Origin: a virus
Taxonomy: Duplodnaviria > Caudoviricetes
Strand: one strand, 5' to 3'
DNA: 64,000 bases
Virus record (IMG/VR): IMGVR_UViG_3300028048_000079
Span: 1-64,000 of that record
In this document: piece by piece, positions 31,923-63,626 of the stretch
How the letters are laid out: the number at the start of each line of letters is the position of its first letter
How positions within the stretch are numbered: position 1 is the stretch's first letter
Notes under the pieces: model-generated
What the model was told of the DNA's origin: nothing
Database searches by the model: none
The model's input: only the letters and a program-made list of their open reading frames with translations
Program-made: the position numbers and the translations under genes

Positions 31923-33446
31923 TTATTTTACTTTTTTAAAGTTCCCATCTATAAATGACACCACCATATATCCGTTTTCAGAAATCACACCATCATAATT
32001 AGACATAAAGTAGTCCAAGTCTTCTTCGGGTATTGAATCTAGATAGCCCACTGCCGCAGGTTCACCTTCAAACATAACAACTGAGTCATCATCTTTCCTC
32101 AGTATCCCATCCTTTGTGACATATGGTTTCATTAATTTCAGATATCCTGCATCTATTTCATCGCCGAATTCTGATGCATAGTCTTCATCAGTTGTATAGA
32201 ATACCAATCCACTATCATAAAATCCTCCATTATCACTATGGGCATGATAAAGCAAAAGTGGATTGCCATATTTGTCTGTTACTTTACTACCTCTAAACCA
32301 ATCAAGTATGTTATTATTAGGTTCAATACTTTCATTTATGCAGTCAGCAAGCAGTTCCTCGCTTGTATAATATTCATCTTCAATTTGATGGTTTGCATTT
32401 GTCTGTTGCATAAAGTCATTAAATTCATCCTTATCCTTTTCGGATAATATTTTTCTGATAATATCATCAAGTATTTCCCTACCTTGTTTTGTTTTAGCAA
32501 ATATTTCTCTAAGGCACTCATTAAATTCTTCTGATGGTAGTTCAGATAATGTCATTAGGAAGAAATTTGGTTCAACAGTGCCCAAATCATACATTTGTGC
32601 TACTATAATATCCCACAAGGTAGAACCGAGTCTCATATCCCACAATTCTGCCAATTTGAAATCAGATTTTTTGATAACATACTCAGCCTTTTCTCTATTC
32701 TCTGGTAATCCGTGTGCAATTGCAAGTTCAAGTACACCTTTTATAGTTTCGTTAAGAAGTACTGGGAATATGATGCCTTCTGCTTTGATTGTAACCATAT
32801 TTTGTGGCATACTCATAGTAACATCCACTTTACCGGCTTCTGTTATTTCATTATCTTCTTTCAGTTTATCTTTTTCGAAGAACAAGAGTATTTCATTATA
32901 TTTAATGATTTTCTTATACAATGATGGCAATTCATCGTCTATTTCGAAAAGTTCCTTGATATATGAAGAAATATTTTTGGAATAGTACATAGCTGCACCT
33001 GTTACAAGAGCATTAAGCATACGTCTTTTATATATTTCCCCACTAAGGTAATTCATATCTTGAATGCTATCAAAACTGAAATCAGTTGTTTTTTCTGGAA
33101 TTAGTCTCTGATTATCATCATTGACTTCATCAACAAGTTCAACATCAATTTGTATAGTATCTTCAGGAATGCTGAAAAGTTCTGTTACTATTGTCATGCA
33201 TAGTTGCTCCAAAGCAGACTTGTTTTTTGCCTCAATGTTTTTACATGTTGAAATAAGTCTTCCCAATTCGGTTTTCAACTGATTAATATCAGTAATCTCC
33301 ATATTATCGGTTATTTTAGTAAACTTATTGGCAACGGCATTTATGATGAACTTCTCTTCTTCCTCAGGTGGGTATGAAGGATGTTCACCAAGTGATGTTT
33401 TATTTGTTTCTAATGACTTGAGTATGTGCTTTGGCAGTTCTAACAT
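31923..33446 (-). CDS. Head-module protein with C-terminal ART-PolyVal-like ADP-ribosyltransferase domain
   Basis: After the CINES linker: WFRGSKVTDKYGNPLLLYH...FYTTD..YA..FG...YLKL..P...YDGV. Confidence 0.65.
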   Translation of the reverse strand: MLELPKHILKSLETNKTSLGEHPSYPPEEEEKFIINAVANKFTKITDNMEITDINQLKTELGRLISTCKNIEAKNKSALEQLCMTIVTELFSIPEDTIQIDVELVDEVNDDNQRLIPEKTTDFSFDSIQDMNYLSGEIYKRRMLNALVTGAAMYYSKNISSYIKELFEIDDELPSLYKKIIKYNEILLFFEKDKLKEDNEITEAGKVDVTMSMPQNMVTIKAEGIIFPVLLNETIKGVLELAIAHGLPENREKAEYVIKKSDFKLAELWDMRLGSTLWDIIVAQMYDLGTVEPNFFLMTLSELPSEEFNECLREIFAKTKQGREILDDIIRKILSEKDKDEFNDFMQQTNANHQIEDEYYTSEELLADCINESIEPNNNILDWFRGSKVTDKYGNPLLLYHAHSDNGGFYDSGLVFYTTDEDYASEFGDEIDAGYLKLMKPYVTKDGILRKDDDSVVMFEGEPAAVGYLDSIPEEDLDYFMSNYDGVISENGYMVVSFIDGNFKKVK

Positions 33447-36437: not shown

Positions 36438-38558
36438 TCATTTAATAGAGTTTATTTTATTATATGTATTATTAATTATATCCCAAATTTTATCAAGATA
36501 GTTCATGCGTCTCAATAATTTATATATGATATTGCCACTTGACATTTCTCCACTTCTTGCCAAACCTTCCTTACGCATGTTCTTCAAACGTTTGAATATC
36601 TTCATGGTTTTCTCACCAAGTTCTTCAAGTCTTGAATTACTTGTTTCCTTGTTTATTTTAGTTTCAATATTATCAATATCCGTCATTATTTTGGCGGAGA
36701 ACTCCTTTATATACTTTTCATTAAGTTTAGCGTCATCAAAATTAGACGGTTCTGTAACCCATTTGTTTTTTGTCAAAGAATATACACCTGAAGATACTCC
36801 GGGTTCATCATAATCCTCAACACTCACTTCTACAGGATAACCGTAGATTTTAAGTTTATCATGCGTTTGGTTCCATATTTCCTTTTTAGATTTGAAATAG
36901 TCATCAATCAGTTCTGTTTTCTTATAAATGTCCTTAAAACTTACAATTATATGTACATCAATATCTGAATATTTCGACCAATTGTAATTTGCCAATGAGC
37001 CAGTGAATACAATATCCTTTGGTTTTAAATTAGGTATTGACAATTCATCGATGAAGTCATCCGCAATGTCAAGCAGTTTCTCTCTTACCCTTGAATTAAG
37101 TTTGTCGTTTATCCAAAACTTATCGTTCAGTTCATCTTTTACCTTAAATGATGAAAGACTGACATCACTTGCATCTACCTCATTAATATACAGTTTAGAT
37201 TCAATAATACCCTCTTTTCTTAATACTTCATCACCGAATAACTGTTTAATCAAATACATGACAACAGGATAATCAACAGTCATCATATACTCATTGAACT
37301 CATGATTTATTCTATTTAATCTTTCAACCCATTCAAAAATATCCCCGTTGACTCTTTCAAATAGGTTTCTGAAAGCATTTTCGTTAAATCCACCAATTTT
37401 CTCTATTCTGAAATTATAATCAGCAATGGGGATTTCATTATCCCATGATGTAACATCACTGTTATTCATGAATTTAAACTTACCGTTATTGAAGTCTTCC
37501 TTTGGTACTTCTATCGAAAAAATACTGCCATGTCCAAAATTATCAGTCATTTTTGTATTAAACCAATTCACACCGTAGGTTTCACTTCTTTTCCTACCAC
37601 GCAGTGCACATATTGTACCTTCCTCAATAATGTCATTCAAAGCCATTATATCAGTTCCATGATACAATTTTATTTTTTCCGGTAATTCATCAAAAAATGA
37701 TGGTTTCCATTCGTTTAAATTCATTATTTTACCTTCACTAATTGTCTTATTGATTATTTTAACAGCAGATGCATTGAATATAACATAATTATTTCCTTCC
37801 TCGCCATCAAAACCAAAAACAGTGCCTATTGGATAGACAATGCCCTCTATTCCACACATATTCAATAGGAATAACGATGCTGCTTTTGGAGAGCCTAATA
37901 AAGATGTTAAACGGTCATATAGTTCTTCTCCACTATTTATTCCCTCAATTATTCCCTCAGTTATACCCTCAAATCTGTTACGATATTTGGTATTTAGGAA
38001 ATTCAATCCTTTTAATATTTTTCCTTTAACTTCATCATTAACTGAATTATACCATTCAATATAGTTACTGCCATCGTTTTCCGGTATTTCAACCTCATAT
38101 ACATATGATTTTGCTTTTGAAAGACGTGGTTCCATTTCTGACAGTACGTTGAAAAAAGAATTTATCTCATTGGTATTTTCACTGTATTTTGAAATGAATT
38201 TATTTTTCTCTGCCTCTATTGTATTTGCATCAATAGTTTTTGTAGTATACATTATCATACGTAAATTATTGATAATGTCATTTGTAATATTTTCATCACT
38301 AATAGTATTATTGGCTATTGATATTAACTTTTCTGTTGTTATACGTTCATTATTTTTATCATATGAACCTGTATTTGCTTCTTTTGAACGGTCAGCATAT
38401 TCACTTGCTATTTCAGAATTATCTGTAACATAAGTGCCCCAACCGAACTCCTGAGAGCCGTCACCTGTATCAAGATACTTTTTATGATTAAACTTATTAA
38501 AGTCATAAGAAGTACCGTGAAAACCCCTTATTTCACTTATGTTTCGTCTTATATTCAT
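36438..38558 (-). CDS. Polyvalent protein: two ART-like domains plus a Pol-beta-family nucleotidyltransferase
   Basis: GFHGTSYDF..F...GDG...GWGTYVT; KLYHGT..AL..I; VFTGSLANYNWSKYSDIDVH (GS...DxD). Confidence 0.75.
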   Translation of the reverse strand: MNIRRNISEIRGFHGTSYDFNKFNHKKYLDTGDGSQEFGWGTYVTDNSEIASEYADRSKEANTGSYDKNNERITTEKLISIANNTISDENITNDIINNLRMIMYTTKTIDANTIEAEKNKFISKYSENTNEINSFFNVLSEMEPRLSKAKSYVYEVEIPENDGSNYIEWYNSVNDEVKGKILKGLNFLNTKYRNRFEGITEGIIEGINSGEELYDRLTSLLGSPKAASLFLLNMCGIEGIVYPIGTVFGFDGEEGNNYVIFNASAVKIINKTISEGKIMNLNEWKPSFFDELPEKIKLYHGTDIMALNDIIEEGTICALRGRKRSETYGVNWFNTKMTDNFGHGSIFSIEVPKEDFNNGKFKFMNNSDVTSWDNEIPIADYNFRIEKIGGFNENAFRNLFERVNGDIFEWVERLNRINHEFNEYMMTVDYPVVMYLIKQLFGDEVLRKEGIIESKLYINEVDASDVSLSSFKVKDELNDKFWINDKLNSRVREKLLDIADDFIDELSIPNLKPKDIVFTGSLANYNWSKYSDIDVHIIVSFKDIYKKTELIDDYFKSKKEIWNQTHDKLKIYGYPVEVSVEDYDEPGVSSGVYSLTKNKWVTEPSNFDDAKLNEKYIKEFSAKIMTDIDNIETKINKETSNSRLEELGEKTMKIFKRLKNMRKEGLARSGEMSSGNIIYKLLRRMNYLDKIWDIINNTYNKINSIK

Positions 38559-38668: not shown

Positions 38669-39826
38669 ATGGCAAAAAAAACAACAAATGAAGAGGTAAC
38701 TCAAGAAGAGATTAAGGAAATAAAGGCACAAATGCGTGACATTATGAATAAGGTCACGCCAAAATACCTTTATGATTATCTTAATCAGTATGTAATTGGC
38801 CAAGAAGAAGCCAAGAAGTATATATCCGTTGCTGTTTATAACCATTATAAACGTTTTATGGATAACATCTATGGTTATACACAATATATTGAGGATAATC
38901 CATATCAAGATGTTGAAATTGAAAAGACTAATTGTATTGTACTTGGAAATTCCGGAAGTGGGAAAACTTATATGCTAAGACTTCTCGCAAAGCATCTGAA
39001 TATACCGTTTTATATACAGGATTCCTGTAGCCTCTCAAGTGCTGGATATGTTGGTGATGATGTCGAGAATGCGGTTCTTGGTGCATTGCGAAGCTGCAAC
39101 TTCAATGTGCAAGCCACACAGCATGCAATTATTGTCTTCGATGAGTTTGATAAACTTTCAAGAAAGAGCGAAAATCCGTCAATAACACGTGATGTCGGTG
39201 GTGAAGGTGTTCAGCAATCACTTTTGAAACTTGTTGAAGGTACAATTGTCAATGTACCGCCCAATGGTGGACGTAAGCATCCGGAACAGGAATGCATTCC
39301 TGTAGATACAAGAAATATTCTTTTCTTCGGCATTGGTGCATTTGATGGTTTGGAAAAGATTATTGAGAAACGCAAGAACAAAAAAACAATTGGCTTTAAT
39401 TCAATTGCAAAGGACAATGAAGTTGAAGAAGACTTGCTTTCAGATGTTACTTCGGATGATTTAAAGAAATATGGCTTGATTCCTGAAATTATAGGCCGTT
39501 TTCCGTTGATTACGCATGTTAAGCCTTTAACAGAAGAACAACTTTATCAGATACTTGTTGAGCCTAAAAATTCAATTATTAAACAGTTTCAGAAACTGTT
39601 TTGGATTGATAATGTTGAACTAACATTTGATGATGATGCTTTGCATATTGTTGCTAAGGAAGCATATGAAATGAAAACCGGTGCTAGAAGCTTGCGTGGT
39701 GTTCTTGATAAATTGCTTGCTGATATTATGTTTGACTACGGTGGTTACAATGAGGAAAAGGTGAAACTTAACATCACAGCTGATATGGTTTCTGCTTACC
39801 AGTCAAAAGTTAAACAAGCTGCTTAA
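38669..39826 (+). CDS. clpX: ClpX-like AAA+ ATPase (no N-terminal Zn domain)
   Basis: YVIGQE.AK..ISVAVYNHYKR, GNSGSGKT, AGYVGDDVE, DEFDK, RDVGGEGVQQ.LLK, GGRKHP, IGF, GAR.LR. Confidence 0.93.
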   Translation: MAKKTTNEEVTQEEIKEIKAQMRDIMNKVTPKYLYDYLNQYVIGQEEAKKYISVAVYNHYKRFMDNIYGYTQYIEDNPYQDVEIEKTNCIVLGNSGSGKTYMLRLLAKHLNIPFYIQDSCSLSSAGYVGDDVENAVLGALRSCNFNVQATQHAIIVFDEFDKLSRKSENPSITRDVGGEGVQQSLLKLVEGTIVNVPPNGGRKHPEQECIPVDTRNILFFGIGAFDGLEKIIEKRKNKKTIGFNSIAKDNEVEEDLLSDVTSDDLKKYGLIPEIIGRFPLITHVKPLTEEQLYQILVEPKNSIIKQFQKLFWIDNVELTFDDDALHIVAKEAYEMKTGARSLRGVLDKLLADIMFDYGGYNEEKVKLNITADMVSAYQSKVKQAA

Positions 39827-45415: not shown

Positions 45416-47842
45416 TTATTTTTCCAAATTTCCAAGACCAATATTTTCTACCTCAAATACAAATCCTTCACTTGGCTGTTTGTCTATTATATAATCTGTT
45501 ATTTTATCCTCAAATTCATGTTGTATTGCATGTAATACAGGTCTTGCACCGTAATCAGATTTTTCTTTTACCTTATCAAATATATAGTTAATTGTGGCAT
45601 CTGCATCGAAACTTTCTCCTAAAACATAATTTAATGAATTAACTTTCTTTCGGAATTTACCTATTTCCAGTTTGATTATTTCTTTGATGTTTTCTTCAGT
45701 AAGTTTATTGAAATAAATGATACTGTCTATACGATTAATAAACTCAGGTCTGAATTTATTCTTCATTGCCTTGTTAATTGCATCTCTATTGTTAGCATCA
45801 TTATTTTGTACAAATCCGATACCCTTTCCTCTATTACTGATTTCTTTTGCACCAACATTTGATGTCATGATGACAATAACATTGGAAAAATCTACAATAT
45901 TTCCCATGTTATCTGTGAGTCTACCTTCATCAAACAATTGTAAGAATACATTATGCACATCATCGTCTGCTTTTTCCATTTCATCAAGAAGTAATACACA
46001 GTGATTGTTCTTCTTGATAGCCTCAGTCAGAATACCACCCTTATCATAGCCAATATAGCCGGGAGATGAACCTGTTAATTTACTGACAGTCATCTTGTCT
46101 GAATATTCACTCATATCAAGTCTTACCATAGATTTTTCATCACCAAATACTTCCTCGGCAAGTTTCTTTGCCAAATAAGTTTTGCCACTTCCTGTAGTTC
46201 CGCTAAAAAACAGTACAGCAGGACGGTTATTATTGGCAATACCAATTCTTTGTCTTTTTACTACACGGCAAACCTCATCTACGGCTTCCTCTTGGCCGAT
46301 AACCAAAGATTTCAACTTTGAATTAAGCATTTTCAACTTGTCACGTTCATTCTCATTGAGTTTCGTAACAGGTATGTTAGTTTTAACTGAAATCAATTCC
46401 CTAACATCATCCTCATCAACCACAATAGGTTTATTGTTAAGCATTAGGTCTTTTTCAATCAATTGAATTTGTGACTTTAATTCAATTTCCCTTGATTTAA
46501 GTTTATCATATACATTTGTATATTGTTTTTCACTTGAACTATTAAGCCCTTTAAGTTTTTCTGTTACATCATGCAAGTCCTTCTTGTATTCAGTAATACG
46601 TGGGTCTTCAGCCTTTGAAATGCCTTTCTTTGCACCGAGTTCATCAATAATATCAATAGCATAATCAGGAAGATTTGCCGTTTTTACATATTGTTTGGTA
46701 AGTTTCACACAGGTTTCAATTGCAGCGTCGGTAAATTCAACATTGTGATACTTCTCATATTTAACCTTGCACAACTTCATAATCTCAATGATTTCCTCAT
46801 CAGTCTTCTCTTTCAGTTCAACCTTTTGGAAACGTCTTTTCATGGACGGTCTTCCAAGTATATAGGTATTATATGACTTCTTATCCATTGTGCATATGAA
46901 TTTGATGTTACGTTCCATCAATATCATATCCAACATATTTTCGGTATTAACCTCGCCAAATTTACTGCTTTCAGATAAAATGGACTGAAGGTCATCCACG
47001 AAGAAAATATATCCGTCTTTTTTCACTGCATCAGCAACTATTGCATTGAATTTTGCCTCAAAATTTCCCCTTAATGCGGCACCGGAAACCAATGCCATAA
47101 AATCCATCTTCATCAGTTTCTTATTTTTGAAAGCATCGGGCACTTTTTCGTTAATAATCAGATTGGCAATATGTGCAACTGTTGCTGTTTTTCCAATTCC
47201 GGAATCCCCAACAACCACAACATTGTTACGGTCACGTTTTGATAATATATTAAAAATAGTATTGATTGCTTCATCATTGCCGATAACCTCATCAATTTTA
47301 CCATTTGCTGCCAAATCATTCATATTAATAAGTAAGTCCTCTACTGGCCCCTTTAATATTTGTGGCTGTTGCATACGATTTTTCTTTGATTTACCTATTT
47401 TGGCATCTGATGGAAGTACCGCATCCAAATTAGTAAGCAACTGTTCATATGTTATACCAATTTGTTTGAACTGTTTGGCGATGTTTTCATTTAACTTCAA
47501 AATAGACATCAGCACATGGGCTGATGCAAGTCTTGTAACATTAAACTCTTTGGCTGCACTTTCAATAGCCTTATCATATATTGAGTCATGCTCCACCTTA
47601 TCGATGGTTTTTGGTGCATCTGTCTTTGAAAGAACCTGTACAAACCATTCCTGCATAGATGTGAGCGTACTTGTCAATGTTGCCTTTGAAAGCAATTGAT
47701 AAGCAGATGAATCTTCATTTTCAAGTACAGAGAGAAAAAAATACTCAATAACAATCTTATTTGTTGGATATTTCTTTACTAAGTTATTTTCAATATATTG
47801 AAATATGTTAACCGCTTCGTTTGTAAAATTGGCTTTAAACAT
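45416..47842 (-). CDS. ClpA/ClpC-type two-ring AAA+ ATPase
   Basis: GDSGIGKT, RRFQ, LPD.AID..DE, GQEEAV, GTTGSGKT, RLDMSEY, GYIGY, LLDE.EKA, GRLTD, GIGF, PEFINRID, GARP. Confidence 0.93.
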   Translation of the reverse strand: MFKANFTNEAVNIFQYIENNLVKKYPTNKIVIEYFFLSVLENEDSSAYQLLSKATLTSTLTSMQEWFVQVLSKTDAPKTIDKVEHDSIYDKAIESAAKEFNVTRLASAHVLMSILKLNENIAKQFKQIGITYEQLLTNLDAVLPSDAKIGKSKKNRMQQPQILKGPVEDLLINMNDLAANGKIDEVIGNDEAINTIFNILSKRDRNNVVVVGDSGIGKTATVAHIANLIINEKVPDAFKNKKLMKMDFMALVSGAALRGNFEAKFNAIVADAVKKDGYIFFVDDLQSILSESSKFGEVNTENMLDMILMERNIKFICTMDKKSYNTYILGRPSMKRRFQKVELKEKTDEEIIEIMKLCKVKYEKYHNVEFTDAAIETCVKLTKQYVKTANLPDYAIDIIDELGAKKGISKAEDPRITEYKKDLHDVTEKLKGLNSSSEKQYTNVYDKLKSREIELKSQIQLIEKDLMLNNKPIVVDEDDVRELISVKTNIPVTKLNENERDKLKMLNSKLKSLVIGQEEAVDEVCRVVKRQRIGIANNNRPAVLFFSGTTGSGKTYLAKKLAEEVFGDEKSMVRLDMSEYSDKMTVSKLTGSSPGYIGYDKGGILTEAIKKNNHCVLLLDEMEKADDDVHNVFLQLFDEGRLTDNMGNIVDFSNVIVIMTSNVGAKEISNRGKGIGFVQNNDANNRDAINKAMKNKFRPEFINRIDSIIYFNKLTEENIKEIIKLEIGKFRKKVNSLNYVLGESFDADATINYIFDKVKEKSDYGARPVLHAIQHEFEDKITDYIIDKQPSEGFVFEVENIGLGNLEK

Positions 47843-47902: not shown

Positions 47903-47936
47903 TTTGGCTATTTCATGCAAAAATAGTATCTTTGCA
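47903..47936 (+). promoter_or_regulatory. Bacteroidota sigma-A-type promoter
   Basis: TTTG-N20-TATCTTTG driving the KTSC / ARH-ThyX / helicase operon. Confidence 0.75.
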
Positions 47937-47959: not shown

Positions 47960-48481
47960 ATGGCAATAGTTTATAATAAGTACGTTAACAACAGAGACCA
48001 CACGTGGTATGATAGCAGCAATGTGCTGTACAGTGTCTGTTATGACACTAATGCAGAGAAGAAATCTCTAAAGGTTGTCTTTAAACAAGGCAGAACATAC
48101 CTTTATAAGGACGTAGATGTAAAGGATTATCTGTTATTCAGAAATGCAGAGTCTCATGGCAAATCAGTAAATGAGTTTATTGTCAAGAAATATAAGGGTG
48201 TCAGACTTTCTGATACATCACAAGAGGCTCTTGACGAACTCAAAGAGGAATTTATCAATGAAAACAAAGTTACTGAGGAAGCATTCACAAATCTTGCATA
48301 TCATTTAGAGATTAATAGTGAAACAAAAGAGTTCCGTCTTAAACTGAATGATAAAACAATTTACGAAGGAGTTGAGAACCAAGTATCAATTACAAGGTTG
48401 CTTAAATCAATGAATATTAACTATTCCTATTCAGAAATGGAAGGAAAAATAACAACAGAAGAGGATTTCGAAAATGAGTAA
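47960..48481 (+). CDS. KTSC-domain protein
   Basis: DSSNV...YD....L.V.FKQG..Y.Y.DV....Y..F..AESHGK..N..I. Confidence 0.8.
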   Translation: MAIVYNKYVNNRDHTWYDSSNVLYSVCYDTNAEKKSLKVVFKQGRTYLYKDVDVKDYLLFRNAESHGKSVNEFIVKKYKGVRLSDTSQEALDELKEEFINENKVTEEAFTNLAYHLEINSETKEFRLKLNDKTIYEGVENQVSITRLLKSMNINYSYSEMEGKITTEEDFENE

Positions 48482-49838
48482 ATTAATTTTAGGTGCTATC
48501 GGTGGTGACATGATTGGTCGCCCTTATGAGTTTCACCCTATTAAAACAACGGAGTTCCCATTGTTCATAAACAATTCTAATTTTACTGATGATACAGTAA
48601 TGACTGTGGCTAATATGGCTTGGCTATTGGACTATGAGAAAAATGACCTTGTTGATATTATGCATTATTTGGGAAATATCTATTCCGATGTTGGATATGG
48701 ACAATGGTTTCACAAATGGCTTATTGCACGTAACAGATTACCATTTTTTTCATATGGAAATGGTTCGGCAATGCGCTGTAGCCCTGTTGGGTGGATGTTT
48801 GATACAATTGAAGAAACATTAGATTATGCCAAAAAGAGTGCGGAGGTAACTCATAATCACCCAGAAGGTATTAAAGGTGCACAAGCAGTAGCATCGGCAA
48901 TATTCTTTGCCCGTCAAAACAAAAGCAAGGAGTTTATTAAAGAATATATAACAAAGAATTTCGGTTATAATCTTGATAGGACAACTGACGAAATAAGACC
49001 AACTTATAAGTTTGATGTTACTTGCCAAGGTTCAGTTCCTGAAGCAATTATCTGTTTCCTTGAAGGTGATGACTATGAGTCAACCGTAAGGCTTGCAGTT
49101 TCACTCGGCGGTGATGCTGATACACAAGGTGCAATTGCTGGGTCAATAGCAGAAGCTTATTATGGTATACCTGAAAAAATACAGAAAGAAATTATTAAAC
49201 GTCTGCCAAAAATGCTTCTAAAAACAGTTGAAGCGTTCTCAGAAAATGCATTTAATCAGAACAATCAACTTTCTGTAACAGTCACACAGGAAACATCTTG
49301 GAAACGTGCATTAAATGCAGCAAGACGTACAATTGGTAAAGAGCCTATTGACAAAGAGCCGTCAGATACTTGGAAAGCGAAAGTATTACTTGCAGAACAT
49401 TCTCCTATTAAATTAGTTGAATATCTTATTTTATTTAAAAGCCTAAGACAATGGGTTGGTGTCCATTTACTAAGACATGAGCATACCCTACCTTTCATTC
49501 ATTCCCAACGTGAAGATAGAAGAAAACTTAATTGTTCAAGGGATGAATTGCCACAAGGCACTCCAAATGACCAAGACTTTGTAGTAAATGCACAAACCTT
49601 AAAGAACATATCTCGTAAGAGGCTATGCACATGTGCTTCAAAGGAAACAAGAGAAGCATGGCAGATGGTTAAGGATAAAATTAGGGAGTTTGACCCTGTA
49701 ATGGCAGATAAGATGGTAAGAAACTGTGTTTACTGTGGTTTTTGCCCGGAACTTAAATGCTGTGGATATGTTAATACTGAAAACTACCAAATAGAACTTG
49801 AAAAATATCGTAAAACTGATTATGACGAAAAAACATAA
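48474..49838 (+). CDS. ADP-ribosylglycohydrolase (DraG/ARH) fused to a ThyX-like domain
   Basis: N-terminal GAIGGD..G.PYEF, FTDDT, SYGNGSAMR, THNHPEG, GGDADT; C-terminal LLAEHSP, RHE-X7-S, RKRLC, NC.Y.G.CPE...CG. Confidence 0.85.
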   Translation: MSKLILGAIGGDMIGRPYEFHPIKTTEFPLFINNSNFTDDTVMTVANMAWLLDYEKNDLVDIMHYLGNIYSDVGYGQWFHKWLIARNRLPFFSYGNGSAMRCSPVGWMFDTIEETLDYAKKSAEVTHNHPEGIKGAQAVASAIFFARQNKSKEFIKEYITKNFGYNLDRTTDEIRPTYKFDVTCQGSVPEAIICFLEGDDYESTVRLAVSLGGDADTQGAIAGSIAEAYYGIPEKIQKEIIKRLPKMLLKTVEAFSENAFNQNNQLSVTVTQETSWKRALNAARRTIGKEPIDKEPSDTWKAKVLLAEHSPIKLVEYLILFKSLRQWVGVHLLRHEHTLPFIHSQREDRRKLNCSRDELPQGTPNDQDFVVNAQTLKNISRKRLCTCASKETREAWQMVKDKIREFDPVMADKMVRNCVYCGFCPELKCCGYVNTENYQIELEKYRKTDYDEKT

Positions 49839-50454
49839 ATGTTCCAAATGTGGTAAAATGGCTACTTGGTACTACTTACCTTCAACACGTGGACGGTCAT
49901 TCTTCTGTGATGACTGTGTTCCACGTGGTTGCACTTGCAATATTGATAATATTGAAGAAATGCCGAGCATATTCAATATGGAAAATGTAAGGTGGTGGCC
50001 AAAACATATTCTTGAAAAGTGCTTGGCTGAAAAGGGAGACCCAATGTTATGTTGTACCAATGAACGTCAAGCAGACTCTTTTTACTATGAGGTTCTTGAC
50101 GAATTAAATAGAAGAGAACCATGTGTAGAATTTGAGTATTCAGAAAGCGGCTTTGAATTTGAAAGCAATTTCTATGTTGTCGACAGAGCAGATGTTCTAG
50201 AAGTATTTGCCAAAGTGATATATCATCACCCTCAAGTAACTCAAAAAATGATAGGGAAGATGGATGAAGTTATAATGTCTTATCGTGATATACACATCAT
50301 ACCATACAATGAGTTTATGACTAAAATATCTGAATGTTGTAGACCATACATTATGAGAACAATGTTAGAAAGTGATAAAATAAATCTGAGATGCTACAAC
50401 TCATTCAGAAGCCAACTATACGAAAAGAAATTTAATATCTTATCAGAAGAATAA
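49822..50454 (+). CDS. Cys-rich Zn-binding hypothetical protein
   Basis: CSKCGK.ATW.Y.P...CDDCVPRGCTCN. Confidence 0.7.
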   Translation: MTKKHKCSKCGKMATWYYLPSTRGRSFFCDDCVPRGCTCNIDNIEEMPSIFNMENVRWWPKHILEKCLAEKGDPMLCCTNERQADSFYYEVLDELNRREPCVEFEYSESGFEFESNFYVVDRADVLEVFAKVIYHHPQVTQKMIGKMDEVIMSYRDIHIIPYNEFMTKISECCRPYIMRTMLESDKINLRCYNSFRSQLYEKKFNILSEE

Positions 50455-60128: not shown

Positions 60129-63100
60129 ATGAACTCGGAAAATTTAGGAACAATATACTCAGAAAATTTCAAAAAATGGTTCGGAGATTGGGAGAATGAC
60201 CCACAGAATGCATCAAAAGTTGTAGACTCAAATGGTATGCCACTTCCGGTATATCATGGAACTGTATGCAAAGGTAAAGACGGTTTACCATTTAAGAAAT
60301 TCAAAACTGAAAGCAACGCAGGTGATGGTGTAATGTTTGCTGATAACTATTCAGTTGCATCATTCTTTGGCGGGCATGGCCAAGCACGTTTCGGTAATTT
60401 TGAAGAAAAGTTTGCACAGTGGCCGCACAAAGATAGTATGGATGGGCTTGTGGAGTTTCTTAATAACGTTCTTAAAAATGGAAAATATTCAATACGTAAC
60501 TTTAATGGGGTTTATAACGGAGAGCCTTATGAATTTTATAGATTGGAATGTGAATATTATGGCGGTGGTAGTGGTTCTACTCCGCTTGGTGACACTGAGG
60601 AAGAAGCACTTGAGACATTAAGACATGAAGTTGAAAAAGAAATAAGATATATGGAAAGAAACTCCAAACAAGGTTATACCGGTGGAGTATATAATGTTTA
60701 TCTTAATATTAGAAACCCATATATATTTGATGCACAAGGGTCACAATTCCATATGCTTAGGACACAGTTTCACCAAAAACGTTTAACTGTATTTGAATTA
60801 GTTTACTTTGTTAAGCAAACCGGAAAATACGATGGTGTTATTGTCAAAAACGTTAGGGAAACAACAATGGGTAATGGCATACTTACAACAGACTATATTG
60901 TTTTTAAACCAAATCAAATTAAGCATGCATTAGATAATAACGGTAATTATGGTTTAGATACTGATGATATGACAGAAGCAAAAATACGTGAAGCAATTAA
61001 AGAAGTATTAACAGAAGCACTCATCACTGAAGGTGTTGAAACTAAAAATATGAAACTTGCCAAACATTATCTTTATCAGAAGAAAGGATTTAATGAGCAG
61101 CAAGCCATGCAATGTATTGGCCAAATTAAAACTGATATACCAAATTCAAGACTTGGTAAATGCAAATTCATGCTTGCAATGGTAAGAATGTTCTGCGATG
61201 GTGATTTCACTGATGGAGCAACTATAATGAAAATCAATAAAAGCCTTAAATTTGCAGCATCCGATGCACATATAAATGAGTATAACAATGACTTGAATGG
61301 TTTATCCGCACAACAGTTAATTGATAAATTTGCTGTTTCAGCCCAACAAGATTTAGACCAAGATAGAAATGATGTCTCATCACAAGAATATAATGAAAGT
61401 AATAACCACTATGAAATCGTAAAGATAACCTCATTTGAAGAGGCAGAAGAGTATGGTGATTATGTATCTTGGTGCGTAACTCATTATGATGACATGTACG
61501 ACTCATATACAAGTAACGGCAATGGCGTATTCTATTTCTGTTTAAGAGATGGATGGCAAAACGAACCTGAAGAACCCGGTGAAGGCTGTCCTCTTGATAG
61601 TTATGGTTTGTCTATGATTGCTGTATCTGTTAATAGTGATGGCTCATGTAATACAATAACATGCAGATGGAACCACGATAATGGAGGAAATGACAATATC
61701 ATGACAACAAAACAGTTATCAGAAGTAATTGGAAGAAACTTCTATGATGTTTTCAAACCGCTTACATTGGAAGAGATACAAGAAAACCAAAAACGCATCC
61801 TTATGGATATTGCTGATGAAGTAAGCACTATTGACATTGAGTATGATGCTGAGAAACTTGAATTTGACCCGGACTATGGTGATACCATAGAGGCTGATGT
61901 ATATGTATATAAGTCAGAAAAAGATGCAAGTGTCATAATTGGTGAAGAAGGAGAATTTATAATTGATATGGTATTTGACTCTGTTAATTATAGAGTTGGG
62001 GATACAATGACCGTATATCTTGGCAAAAAGTCCAATTTTGTAACATTATATTATTCAGAAGGATATATTGTAAAAGGAAAACTTGTTAGTGATACATGGT
62101 TTGACCAAGCCCATAATGAGTTCAATGACGGTTATGGAATGGTTCGTCTAAATAACAAATGGAACTTAATTGATAAAAATGGGCAATACTTATTGAAAGA
62201 TTGGCATGATGCTATTGGCAGAAGACGTTTGAAAGATAGTTACATTGAAGTTGTAGATAATGGAAAAACGAATTTCATTAATATGGAAACCAATGAATAT
62301 TTGTTTGACAGACCTGTAGCTTATATATTCTTTGCCGATGATTATGGTACTTTCATAAGGTTGGAAGGTAATGACTATATACAAGTTTATGACCCCAAAA
62401 CCCTTAAATTAAGAGCACCTTGGAAAATACAACGGTTGTTAGGATATTGTTATTCATCTTTCTATTGTGTAGAATTAACAAATGATGAACAATATCTAAT
62501 TGATAACAAAGGCAATTTATATGGCTATATCAGTAAAGAACTTGCATATCAAAACCCAATGATTAACACTTCTGAAAATGAAAGCATTTCAAGAAACTAT
62601 ATTGATGAAGTAAGGTATATTGATGCACGTGATGAGAAATATAATGGAGCAGTCCACAAAAAGCATTGGACTGAGATATATAACCAAGAGCCGATAACAG
62701 ATGATAGCAGAATACGTGTGTTTCACGGATGTGAGTTGAAGACTGCTTGTAATATAGCTATTAACGGTACGTCAGGAAAAACATACCATACAAGGCAATA
62801 TTCTTATGAAGCCGGTATGAACCCATTAGGAATATTCGTAACAACAGATTTTGAAACTGCAAAGAAATTCGGTGTATCTAATTCCGGTATGGCAATTATT
62901 GAATTTACTGCCAAAGGTTCTGATTTGGAAACCCCTGTATGGAATGGCCAAGGTTCATATTTTGGACAAGGTAGTAATCCTATGCCATTTAGTAATAGTG
63001 ATGAAAGAGATGCACAGAAAATGCAATACAGACAGAATGCACTAAATACTCCCGATGATTATTACTATGATGATAAACATCAAAAACGTGACATCTCTAT

Positions 63101-63626
63101 GAGTCATGTTAGAAATTCAGATAAACCGGAAATGGCCGATAGAATTTTCAATAATACAGAACATCAGGCATTGTTTATTGGTGATTTAAATCCTAATATG
63201 ATAAAAAGAATATGGGTGAAATTACCAAGAGAAGATGGGTATGTACATTCAGATGATAACTATCAACCAATGAGTGTCAGAGAGTTTATAAAGAAATTCA
63301 AGGATAAAGAATGGTGCGAAGGTACTGATTATAAGGGAAATTGGAAATATTCCAAGATAAGAAAAGAAAAACTATTCTATCCTAATGAAGATGTTAAATC
63401 ATTTGATGATGTGATTGATAGGATTTGGAAAAATGAAAAAAATTATTATAACAGTCGTGAAGAAGTAAAACAATCACTTGAGTCTTTTGGAATGCTTCAA
63501 AATCCGCCATCAGATAATGCATATGACTTGATTAAAAACGAATTGTGGCCAAAACAGATTATACAACTGTATGGCAAAGAATATTTTAAAAATAACTTTG
63601 ATAGATTAGGACAATGGATACATTAG
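60129..63626 (+). CDS. Large polyvalent protein: ART-PolyVal + WC-motif domain + WG-like repeats + second ART-like domain
   Basis: FKKWFGDW...SKVVD.NG.P..VYHGT...VYLNIRNP...YDGV....F.PNQIK; WCVT; KWNLIDKNG; RVFHG...GIFVTTD...A..F. Confidence 0.8.
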   Translation: MNSENLGTIYSENFKKWFGDWENDPQNASKVVDSNGMPLPVYHGTVCKGKDGLPFKKFKTESNAGDGVMFADNYSVASFFGGHGQARFGNFEEKFAQWPHKDSMDGLVEFLNNVLKNGKYSIRNFNGVYNGEPYEFYRLECEYYGGGSGSTPLGDTEEEALETLRHEVEKEIRYMERNSKQGYTGGVYNVYLNIRNPYIFDAQGSQFHMLRTQFHQKRLTVFELVYFVKQTGKYDGVIVKNVRETTMGNGILTTDYIVFKPNQIKHALDNNGNYGLDTDDMTEAKIREAIKEVLTEALITEGVETKNMKLAKHYLYQKKGFNEQQAMQCIGQIKTDIPNSRLGKCKFMLAMVRMFCDGDFTDGATIMKINKSLKFAASDAHINEYNNDLNGLSAQQLIDKFAVSAQQDLDQDRNDVSSQEYNESNNHYEIVKITSFEEAEEYGDYVSWCVTHYDDMYDSYTSNGNGVFYFCLRDGWQNEPEEPGEGCPLDSYGLSMIAVSVNSDGSCNTITCRWNHDNGGNDNIMTTKQLSEVIGRNFYDVFKPLTLEEIQENQKRILMDIADEVSTIDIEYDAEKLEFDPDYGDTIEADVYVYKSEKDASVIIGEEGEFIIDMVFDSVNYRVGDTMTVYLGKKSNFVTLYYSEGYIVKGKLVSDTWFDQAHNEFNDGYGMVRLNNKWNLIDKNGQYLLKDWHDAIGRRRLKDSYIEVVDNGKTNFINMETNEYLFDRPVAYIFFADDYGTFIRLEGNDYIQVYDPKTLKLRAPWKIQRLLGYCYSSFYCVELTNDEQYLIDNKGNLYGYISKELAYQNPMINTSENESISRNYIDEVRYIDARDEKYNGAVHKKHWTEIYNQEPITDDSRIRVFHGCELKTACNIAINGTSGKTYHTRQYSYEAGMNPLGIFVTTDFETAKKFGVSNSGMAIIEFTAKGSDLETPVWNGQGSYFGQGSNPMPFSNSDERDAQKMQYRQNALNTPDDYYYDDKHQKRDISMSHVRNSDKPEMADRIFNNTEHQALFIGDLNPNMIKRIWVKLPREDGYVHSDDNYQPMSVREFIKKFKDKEWCEGTDYKGNWKYSKIRKEKLFYPNEDVKSFDDVIDRIWKNEKNYYNSREEVKQSLESFGMLQNPPSDNAYDLIKNELWPKQIIQLYGKEYFKNNFDRLGQWIH

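Follow-up and report, generated by a model that had tools for sequence, protein, structure and literature searches.

A conserved fusion of a predicted ARH3-like ADP-ribosylhydrolase domain to a divergent ThyX-fold domain in crAss-related gut phages

The stretch of DNA analysed in this study, referred to below as the window, comprises 64,000 nucleotides of a virus of the Caudoviricetes (positions 1 to 64,000 of the 124,868-nucleotide IMG/VR record IMGVR_UViG_3300028048_000079). One open reading frame (ORF) of the window, of 454 amino acids (aa), joins a predicted ADP-ribosylhydrolase domain of the ARH3 type (ARH) to a divergent domain with the fold of the thymidylate synthase ThyX. This fusion is real, rare and conserved, with purifying selection on both halves, and ARH-ThyX is an undescribed architecture, whose carriers are a small clade of crAss-related, probably jumbo, gut Bacteroidales phages. 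The ARH half might be a captured accessory eraser of ADP-ribose, most likely serving as a counter-defence against the host, which is co-translated with a ThyX-type enzyme of the phage while the two activities stay independent. This explanation is put forward as plausible and still tentative.

Among 5.8 billion protein clusters, only two other full-length fusions were detected, P0001 (464 aa, 77% identity) and P0002 (460 aa, 74%). IMG/VR provided one more fused contig, L011 (92% protein identity). The order of the genes was common to the loci of P0001 (L003) and P0002 (L004-L005) and to L011, with a divergently transcribed ClpB gene followed by KTSC, ARH-ThyX-like and helicase genes. Synonymous sites were saturated among the four fused genes. 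The ratio of non-synonymous to synonymous divergence (dN/dS) was 0.05-0.17 for the ARH part and 0.04-0.10 for the ThyX-like part; for the linker it was 0.1-0.6, and all linker indels were in frame. The two-domain structural model contained no long disordered stretch at the junction. As four assemblies share the fusion, with saturated synonymous divergence (dS), low dN/dS and in-frame indels, it can be neither an assembly artefact nor the outcome of a stop codon that was lost recently. Two more distant candidates, P0003 and P0004 (667 and 709 aa), were high-scoring but were rejected, as they consist of tandem ARH domains with no ThyX-like part. No description of an ARH-ThyX fusion was found in the literature; in an earlier reading of the same DNA from its sequence alone, the fusion had not been recognised as a described one.

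The ARH domain was scarce within the ThyX-like family itself. P0001 and P0002 were the only carriers among 103 over-length ThyX-like proteins, the rest of which had homing-endonuclease domains or other extensions, and no ARH was present in ten long ThyX-like representatives. N-terminal fusions are tolerated in this family, as exemplified by the guanylate-kinase-like P0203. A large group of ThyX-like proteins of 430-500 aa (P0126, P0127, P0129 and about 60 similar proteins) had unassigned N-terminal extensions of about 170 aa as well as C-terminal extensions, and some of these were encoded on contigs of 130-470 kb.

Relatives lacking the fusion presented several arrangements. KTSC was followed directly by a standalone ThyX-like gene in L014, and in L012 by two small ORFs and then by a 194-aa ThyX-like protein, 89% identical to that of the window. 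A standalone ThyX-like gene with KTSC upstream was present in L013 (a locus of record G002) and L026; in cr116_1 and bajarodcaudo virus 1 the gene was also standalone, with no KTSC match. KTSC is the conserved gene 5' of the ThyX-like gene in relatives with and without the fusion. ARH and ThyX-like sequences were found as two adjacent separate genes in no genome examined, the relatives being either fused or devoid of ARH. The sequence-only reading had named relatives with two separate genes as an observation that would speak against a genuine fusion, and no such relative was encountered.

The ARH half matched Pfam family PF03747 with 124.9 bits (cut-off 26.2; E 6.6e-36; aa 5-232) and phrog_6572 with an E-value of 4e-52. 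Its closest solved relatives by sequence were ARH3 enzymes (E 1.5e-14). All seven metal-binding and catalytic equivalents are present, with E20, T38-D39-D40 and D214/D216/T217 aligning with E41, T76-D77-D78 and D314/D316/T317 of ARH3, and these residues are retained in P0001 and P0002. The GNGSAMR motif is intact, besides the TDD (T38 D39 D40) and DADT (D214 D216 T217) motifs. The complete DraG/ARH domain in one uninterrupted ORF had been read correctly before, both in its motifs and in its coordinates. A Foldseek search with the full-length model (Table 1) returned ARH3, MJ1187, DraG and Tri1 with a probability of 1.0, and the model has the all-helical ARH fold; against ARH3, the TMt was 0.60-0.64 with 24-26% identity. 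The domain scored far below the NCBIfam equivalog cut-offs for DraG (TIGR02662; 54.9 versus 337 bits) and for Tri1 (NF041672; 32.3 versus 490 bits). From its residues and its modelled fold, the ARH half is predicted to be an intact ADP-ribosylhydrolase of the ARH3 type.

The identity of the second half was less apparent in profile searches. The match of the window protein to Thy1 (PF02511) was below threshold (19.3 bits versus a cut-off of 24.8; E 0.001) and covered profile positions 135-190 only; ThyX-like relatives do exceed this cut-off, with 25-40 bits. No match to the C-terminal domain was obtained among the sequences of the Protein Data Bank (PDB), even at an E-value of 10 or using the family profile, so that its ThyX identity was visible only by fold. 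A model of aa 266-454 built with 47 homologues had a predicted local distance difference test score (pLDDT) of 95.7, and its best Foldseek matches were all ThyX (probability 1.0, TM 0.55-0.62). With VIA-align, Z scores of 11-13.2 were obtained to 47 ThyX or PolB entries (root-mean-square deviation 2.6-3.7 Å over 145-158 residues), the next, unrelated entry scoring 4.2. As modelled, the domain clearly has the ThyX fold. Its neighbours in the ESM Atlas were viral 'ThyX' clusters, and the ThyX-like family comprised 946 representative clusters (50% identity; E ≤ 1e-3), mostly viral and mostly of 180-230 aa. No other Thy1-like match and no ThyA were found in the 124.9-kb record, in which this domain is the only thymidylate-synthase candidate of the phage. 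Thy1 has been listed among the ancestral genes of crAss-like phages (PMC7886860).

The signature of the domain reads R334-H335-E336-x7-S344-Q-R346, with RHE instead of RHR. Across 150 family representatives, the third position of the RHR-x7-S signature was K, H, N or E and never predominantly R. The residues of Mycobacterium tuberculosis (Mtb) ThyX that contact flavin adenine dinucleotide (FAD) and deoxyuridine monophosphate (dUMP) have been described (S71, R87, R95-97, S105, R107, Y108, R190 and R199; PMC6514825). Residues were mapped to Mtb ThyX by alignment and motif positions rather than by a residue-level structural superposition; an hhalign comparison of the family profile with a canonical ThyX (phage D29 gp48) was weak (59 columns, probability 3%) and was used only beside the motif positions. 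According to this mapping, S71, R95, H96, S105, R107, R172 and R199 have conserved equivalents in S310, R334, H335, S344, R346, R356 and R383. By the same mapping, Mtb R97 (here E336), R190 of the NxR motif (here Q374) and Y108 of the lid (here E347) are not conserved in the ThyX-like family, and no clear counterpart was assigned to R87. The family also has four invariant cysteines (C385, C418, C424 and C430). The four-Cys site adjoins the conserved dUMP-binding Arg (R383-L-C385), and the C-terminal 30 or so residues, including the last two invariant Cys, lie outside the aligned ThyX core.

The ThyX-like domain with RHE-x7-S and a Cys-rich tail, as reported in the sequence-only reading, was thus recovered in its fold, its motif and its cysteines. 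RHE is not a peculiarity of the fusion, as the third position of the RHR motif varies across the whole standalone family; the altered motif and the Cys are family-wide, and RHE is therefore unrelated to the presence of ARH. We infer that the domain is the thymidylate-synthase-type enzyme of the phage, from a divergent four-Cys branch whose use of cofactor may differ from that of the canonical FAD-dependent ThyX. Homing elements invade classical thymidylate synthase genes. The ThyX-like gene family is likewise invaded by HNH/NUMOD4 endonucleases and by group I intron-like RNA, which suggests that the ThyX-like gene is important and conserved. In L026, an insert of roughly 350 bp (L026:6213-6563) interrupts the Thy1-like gene and matches RF00028, the model of group I introns, with 39.2 bits, less than the gathering score of 50 (E 3e-8).

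ARHs on Bacteroidales contigs, a good many of them DUF1810-ARH fusions, shared 60-66% identity with the ARH domain of the window, as compared with at most 47% for ARHs in phage records. Going by these identities, the chromosomal ARHs of Bacteroidales are the nearest relatives of the ARH module and likely its source. The bacterial subfamily to which they belong maintains 45-62% identity across many phyla, and some of its members are fused to HsdM or SseB. In two loci from Clostridiales metagenome-assembled genomes (L108:6001-8412 and L112:6001-8403), the ARH precedes an HsdM methylase of type I restriction-modification in a single protein of about 800 aa (ARH-HsdM_N-N6_Mtase). No consistent partner and no adjacent ADP-ribosyltransferase (ART) toxin was observed in the neighbourhoods of host ARHs, and an NrtR-type regulator (Nudix) was located upstream of the bacterial ARH in only about 5-10 of 80 loci. 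One DUF1810-ARH example was situated in a mobile-looking region; a literature search on DUF1810 returned nothing useful.

Comparison of the window with L011 revealed how the module behaves among phages. Nucleotide identity was 0.93-0.99 over positions 48410-49309, which encompass the ARH domain and the junction, as against 0.80-0.85 in the flanking KTSC gene and, within the ThyX-like domain, 0.76-0.81 for the 3' half. Correspondingly, dS was 0.13 in the ARH part and 0.93 in the ThyX-like one, the mark of a recent recombinational exchange between phages that was restricted to the ARH module. The G+C content of the module (0.369) is already phage-like, so the original capture from a bacterium was not recent.

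A possible course of events begins with the insertion of a bacterial gene for an ARH3-like ADP-ribosylhydrolase between KTSC and the conserved thy1 gene of the phage; the inserted gene would then have lost its stop codon and become an N-terminal extension of the ThyX-fold protein. The ARH would act as an accessory eraser of ADP-ribosylation by ARTs of host defences or toxins, linked to protein or to nucleic-acid phosphate. The fusion would ensure that both parts are expressed together, and might display the ARH in multiple copies on a ThyX-type oligomer, with no new joint chemistry. The presence or absence of ARH among close relatives appears to fit such an accessory logic, as does G002 (401 kb), in which an ART-PolyVal protein (E 9e-22) and a NADAR protein (E 3e-45) were found without ARH. 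NADAR erasers are a demonstrated phage counter-defence against DarT1 (PMC11825919). A patchy and swappable distribution of erasers with different folds fits an accessory conflict gene.

Several points weigh against this proposal. PADLOC models gave no match for the fused protein or for one host homologue. The cross-phylum conservation, varied contexts and occasional NrtR adjacency of the bacterial ARHs suggest a hydrolase of general or housekeeping use rather than a dedicated antitoxin. The fused state was kept through saturated synonymous divergence, and the linkage itself could be useful. With the apparent loss of the equivalents of Mtb R97, R190 and Y108, the partner is only a candidate thymidylate synthase. 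Finally, the phage encodes ART-PolyVal proteins of its own, which makes self-regulation a live alternative.

That alternative, in which the ARH removes or limits the marks made by the ART-PolyVal proteins of the phage and so protects phage components or times the take-over of the host, is considered unlikely, albeit worth keeping in sight. One ART-PolyVal protein of the window is above the Pfam cut-off (60129-63626) and two weaker, sub-threshold matches are at 36438-38558 (-) and 31923-33446 (-), the former of which also has a nucleotidyltransferase domain. Writer and eraser are paired in G002, through NADAR, and L011 contains the fusion together with a weak ART match. In cr116_1, on the other hand, an ART-PolyVal protein (57 bits) occurs and no ARH, macro or NADAR domain was found, so an eraser is not an obligate partner of these phage ARTs. 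Moreover, exchange of the ARH cassette took place separately from the remainder of the genome. With the ART-PolyVal protein of the phage, a circuit of injected writer and early eraser, as suggested in the sequence-only reading, is possible, though not as an obligate pairing.

It is less probable that the ARH cleaves a small molecule, that is, a metabolite or immune signal derived from ADP-ribose (O-acetyl-ADP-ribose, glycocyclic ADP-ribose or an amino-acid-ADP-ribose), the outcome being either weaker NAD-based defence signalling or the recycling of ADP-ribose. The closest solved relatives, the ARH3 enzymes, cleave O-glycosidic ADP-ribose bonds and O-acetyl-ADP-ribose (PMC8883491), some bacterial ARHs adjoin NrtR-type Nudix regulators, and high conservation across phyla fits a small, invariant substrate. 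On the other hand, the NrtR linkage is confined to the small minority of loci given above, and no described enzyme of the ARH fold that acts on Thoeris-type signals was found in the literature.

A mechanistic coupling of the two halves is improbable. The ThyX-like part would then be a pyrimidine- or nucleotide-binding or DNA-directed module that guides the ARH to ADP-ribosylated thymidine or nucleotides, for instance the products of DarT, or the two would share a pathway intermediate. Retention of the fusion over saturated synonymous divergence, a short and mostly helical junction and a predicted template modelling score (pTM) of 0.77 for the two-domain model are in its favour, and the chemistry may be non-canonical in a ThyX-like family from which FAD-phosphate-binding residues have apparently disappeared and in which a four-Cys site has arisen by R383. 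Nevertheless, hundreds of standalone proteins across the family show the altered motifs and the Cys cluster, very close relatives manage without ARH, and only the ARH module lies within the recombination tract, as would fit a module of its own. Macrodomains (DarG, TARG1) are the enzymes that reverse thymidine-linked ADP-ribose, and NADAR reverses the guanine-linked form (PMC8883491, PMC11825919), whereas the substrates of ARH3-type enzymes are ADP-ribose linked to Ser or to phosphate and O-acetyl-ADP-ribose (PMC8883491). The tie between thymidylate chemistry and DarT drawn in the earlier reading thus finds no support in known enzymology.

A more specific idea, and a marginally more doubtful one, is that the four-Cys ThyX-fold domain, from which two FAD-phosphate-binding Arg have apparently been lost, is an oligomeric platform that recognises pyrimidine nucleotides or single-stranded DNA and directs the ARH to base- or nucleotide-linked ADP-ribose. 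If true, nucleic-acid base ADP-ribosylation would have its first eraser with an ARH fold, and a ThyX fold would have taken on a non-canonical job. That a chance stop loss, a frameshift or a chimeric assembly joined two genes is hardly credible, as its only ground is the single metagenomic record, and against it stand four independent assemblies from different samples with 74-92% protein identity, in-frame linker indels and purifying selection in both halves.

The features of the locus are compiled in Table 1. The start at position 47960 given in the sequence-only reading is that of the KTSC gene and not that of the fused ORF, which begins at 48474 and overlaps the KTSC gene by 8 nucleotides. 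The ClpB-like gene adjoins KTSC also in L003, L004, L011, L013 and L026. No Pfam or PHROG family match was obtained for the 218-aa Cys-rich ORF downstream of the fusion. The helicase homologues in fused relatives are of 917-952 aa (L003:6756-9614 and L004:6255-9008), with intein or homing-endonuclease domains, and the 603-aa copy of the window is intein-free. A second Clp/Hsp100-type AAA+ protein (38669-39826, + strand, 385 aa) is single-ring and ClpX/ClpB-D2-like.

Table 1. Coordinates of the features in and around the fused gene (positions in the window; pLDDT and pTM are confidence scores of the structural model)
Feature	Position	Strand	Basis
KTSC-domain protein, 173 aa	47960..48481	+	PF13619, E 2.4e-10
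Fused ORF, 454 aa: predicted ARH domain, helical linker and ThyX-like domain	48474..49838	+	full-length model, pLDDT 93.4, pTM 0.77
Predicted ARH3-like ADP-ribosylhydrolase domain, aa 1-255	48474..49238	+	PF03747, ARH3 sequence match, Foldseek
Predicted ARH metal and catalytic residues	E20 48531-48533; T38-D39-D40 48585-48593; D214-A-D216-T217 49113-49124	+	alignment with ARH3
Junction: end of long helix (H246-263) and short variable linker	49239..49271	+	model, alignment of the four fused genes
Divergent ThyX-fold ('Thy1') domain, aa 266-454	49269..49838	+	model, Foldseek, VIA-align, family conservation
ThyX-like key residues	R334-H335-E336 49473-49481; C385 49626-49628; C418 49725-49727; C424 49743-49745; C430 49761-49763	+	family conservation
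Cys-rich protein, 218 aa, variable slot	49798..50454	+	partial homologues only in L011 and L004
UvrD/SF1 helicase, 603 aa	50454..52265	+	PF00580 E 9e-19, PF13361, phrog_1967 E 1e-88
ClpB-like AAA+ protein, 808 aa, divergent transcription, syntenic anchor	45416..47842	-	PF07724, E 3e-55
Bacteroidetes-type promoter-like motif TTTG-N20-TAtcTTTG, about 25 nucleotides before the KTSC start	47903..47934	+	consensus match only
Large protein with ART-PolyVal domain(s), candidate phage 'writer'	60129..63626	+	PF18760, E 3.4e-12, 47.7 bits versus cut-off 31.2, two stretches

A nucleotide search (megablast) with the region from 44 to 54 kb gave no match among phage records. The completeness of the 124.9-kb record was estimated by CheckV at 32%. 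G002, the relative that shares the ClpB-KTSC-Thy1 synteny, was 100% complete according to the same program, and the window probably represents only part of a jumbo phage of about 400 kb with crAss-like genes.

The motif TTTG-N17-23-TAnnTTTG was matched 13 times in the window, compared with 6.3 expected matches. An extended form, AGTATCTTTG, recurs upstream of several genes; this form, an A-rich run and then AGTA(T/C)CTTTG, is located about 20 nucleotides downstream of TTTG, at 2599, 25815(-), 38608, 45398(-), 47903 and 54618, among others. These recurrent motifs probably constitute a set of promoters of the phage for the host RNA polymerase. A generic sigma-70 promoter scan gave matches at chance level. 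For crAss-like phages, the prevailing view is that early transcription is carried out by an RNA polymerase delivered with the virion, so a host-type promoter does not by itself imply early expression. The placement of the fusion in an early operon behind a host-type promoter was borne out only for the promoter, as a consensus match.

Erasers of ADP-ribose in phages are only starting to be recognised as counter-defence, with NADAR and macrodomain examples known. A Bacteroidales-derived ARH cassette that is swapped among abundant gut phages and stays joined in frame to a predicted enzyme of nucleotide metabolism is a concrete candidate for a player in ADP-ribosylation conflicts in the world of crAss-like phages and Bacteroides. 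In addition, the family of the C-terminal domain (the 946 clusters above) comprises putative dTMP synthases that are routinely annotated as ThyX, though the family appears to lack two cofactor-binding Arg and has an invariant four-Cys site.

When compared with known systems, the ARH half has the fold and di-metal site residues of ARH3 (ADPRHL2/ADPRS) and of the PF03747 family (DraG, ARH1, Tri1, MJ1187). It differs from ARH3 in being shorter (about 255 aa) and in being fused to a ThyX-fold domain, a fusion found only in the present phage clade. The similarity to the chromosomal ARHs of Bacteroidales (about 260 aa) extends over the whole ARH domain; these proteins occur alone or with DUF1810, HsdM or SseB as fusion partner, and in no case with a ThyX-like domain. 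The C-terminal half shares its fold with ThyX/Thy1 (PF02511; T. maritima, H. pylori, M. tuberculosis and PBCV-1) and with the PolB UMP/dUMP methylase, and differs from canonical ThyX by the apparent loss of the R97, R190 and Y108 equivalents, by its four Cys and by a C-terminal extension of about 30 aa. Its closest described relatives are the 'Thy1' proteins of crAss-like phages (PMC7886860; cr116_1 gp_24126 and the 'ThyX protein' of bajarodcaudo virus 1), which are 65-81% identical to it and are encoded in a similar neighbourhood of replication genes, but which lack ARH and stand alone at about 190 aa. A parallel in concept only is AdfN, the orphan NADAR eraser of T4-like phages (PMC11825919), as an eraser of bacterial ancestry that serves as a phage accessory gene. 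Its fold is unrelated, and its demonstrated target is DarT1-modified guanine in DNA.

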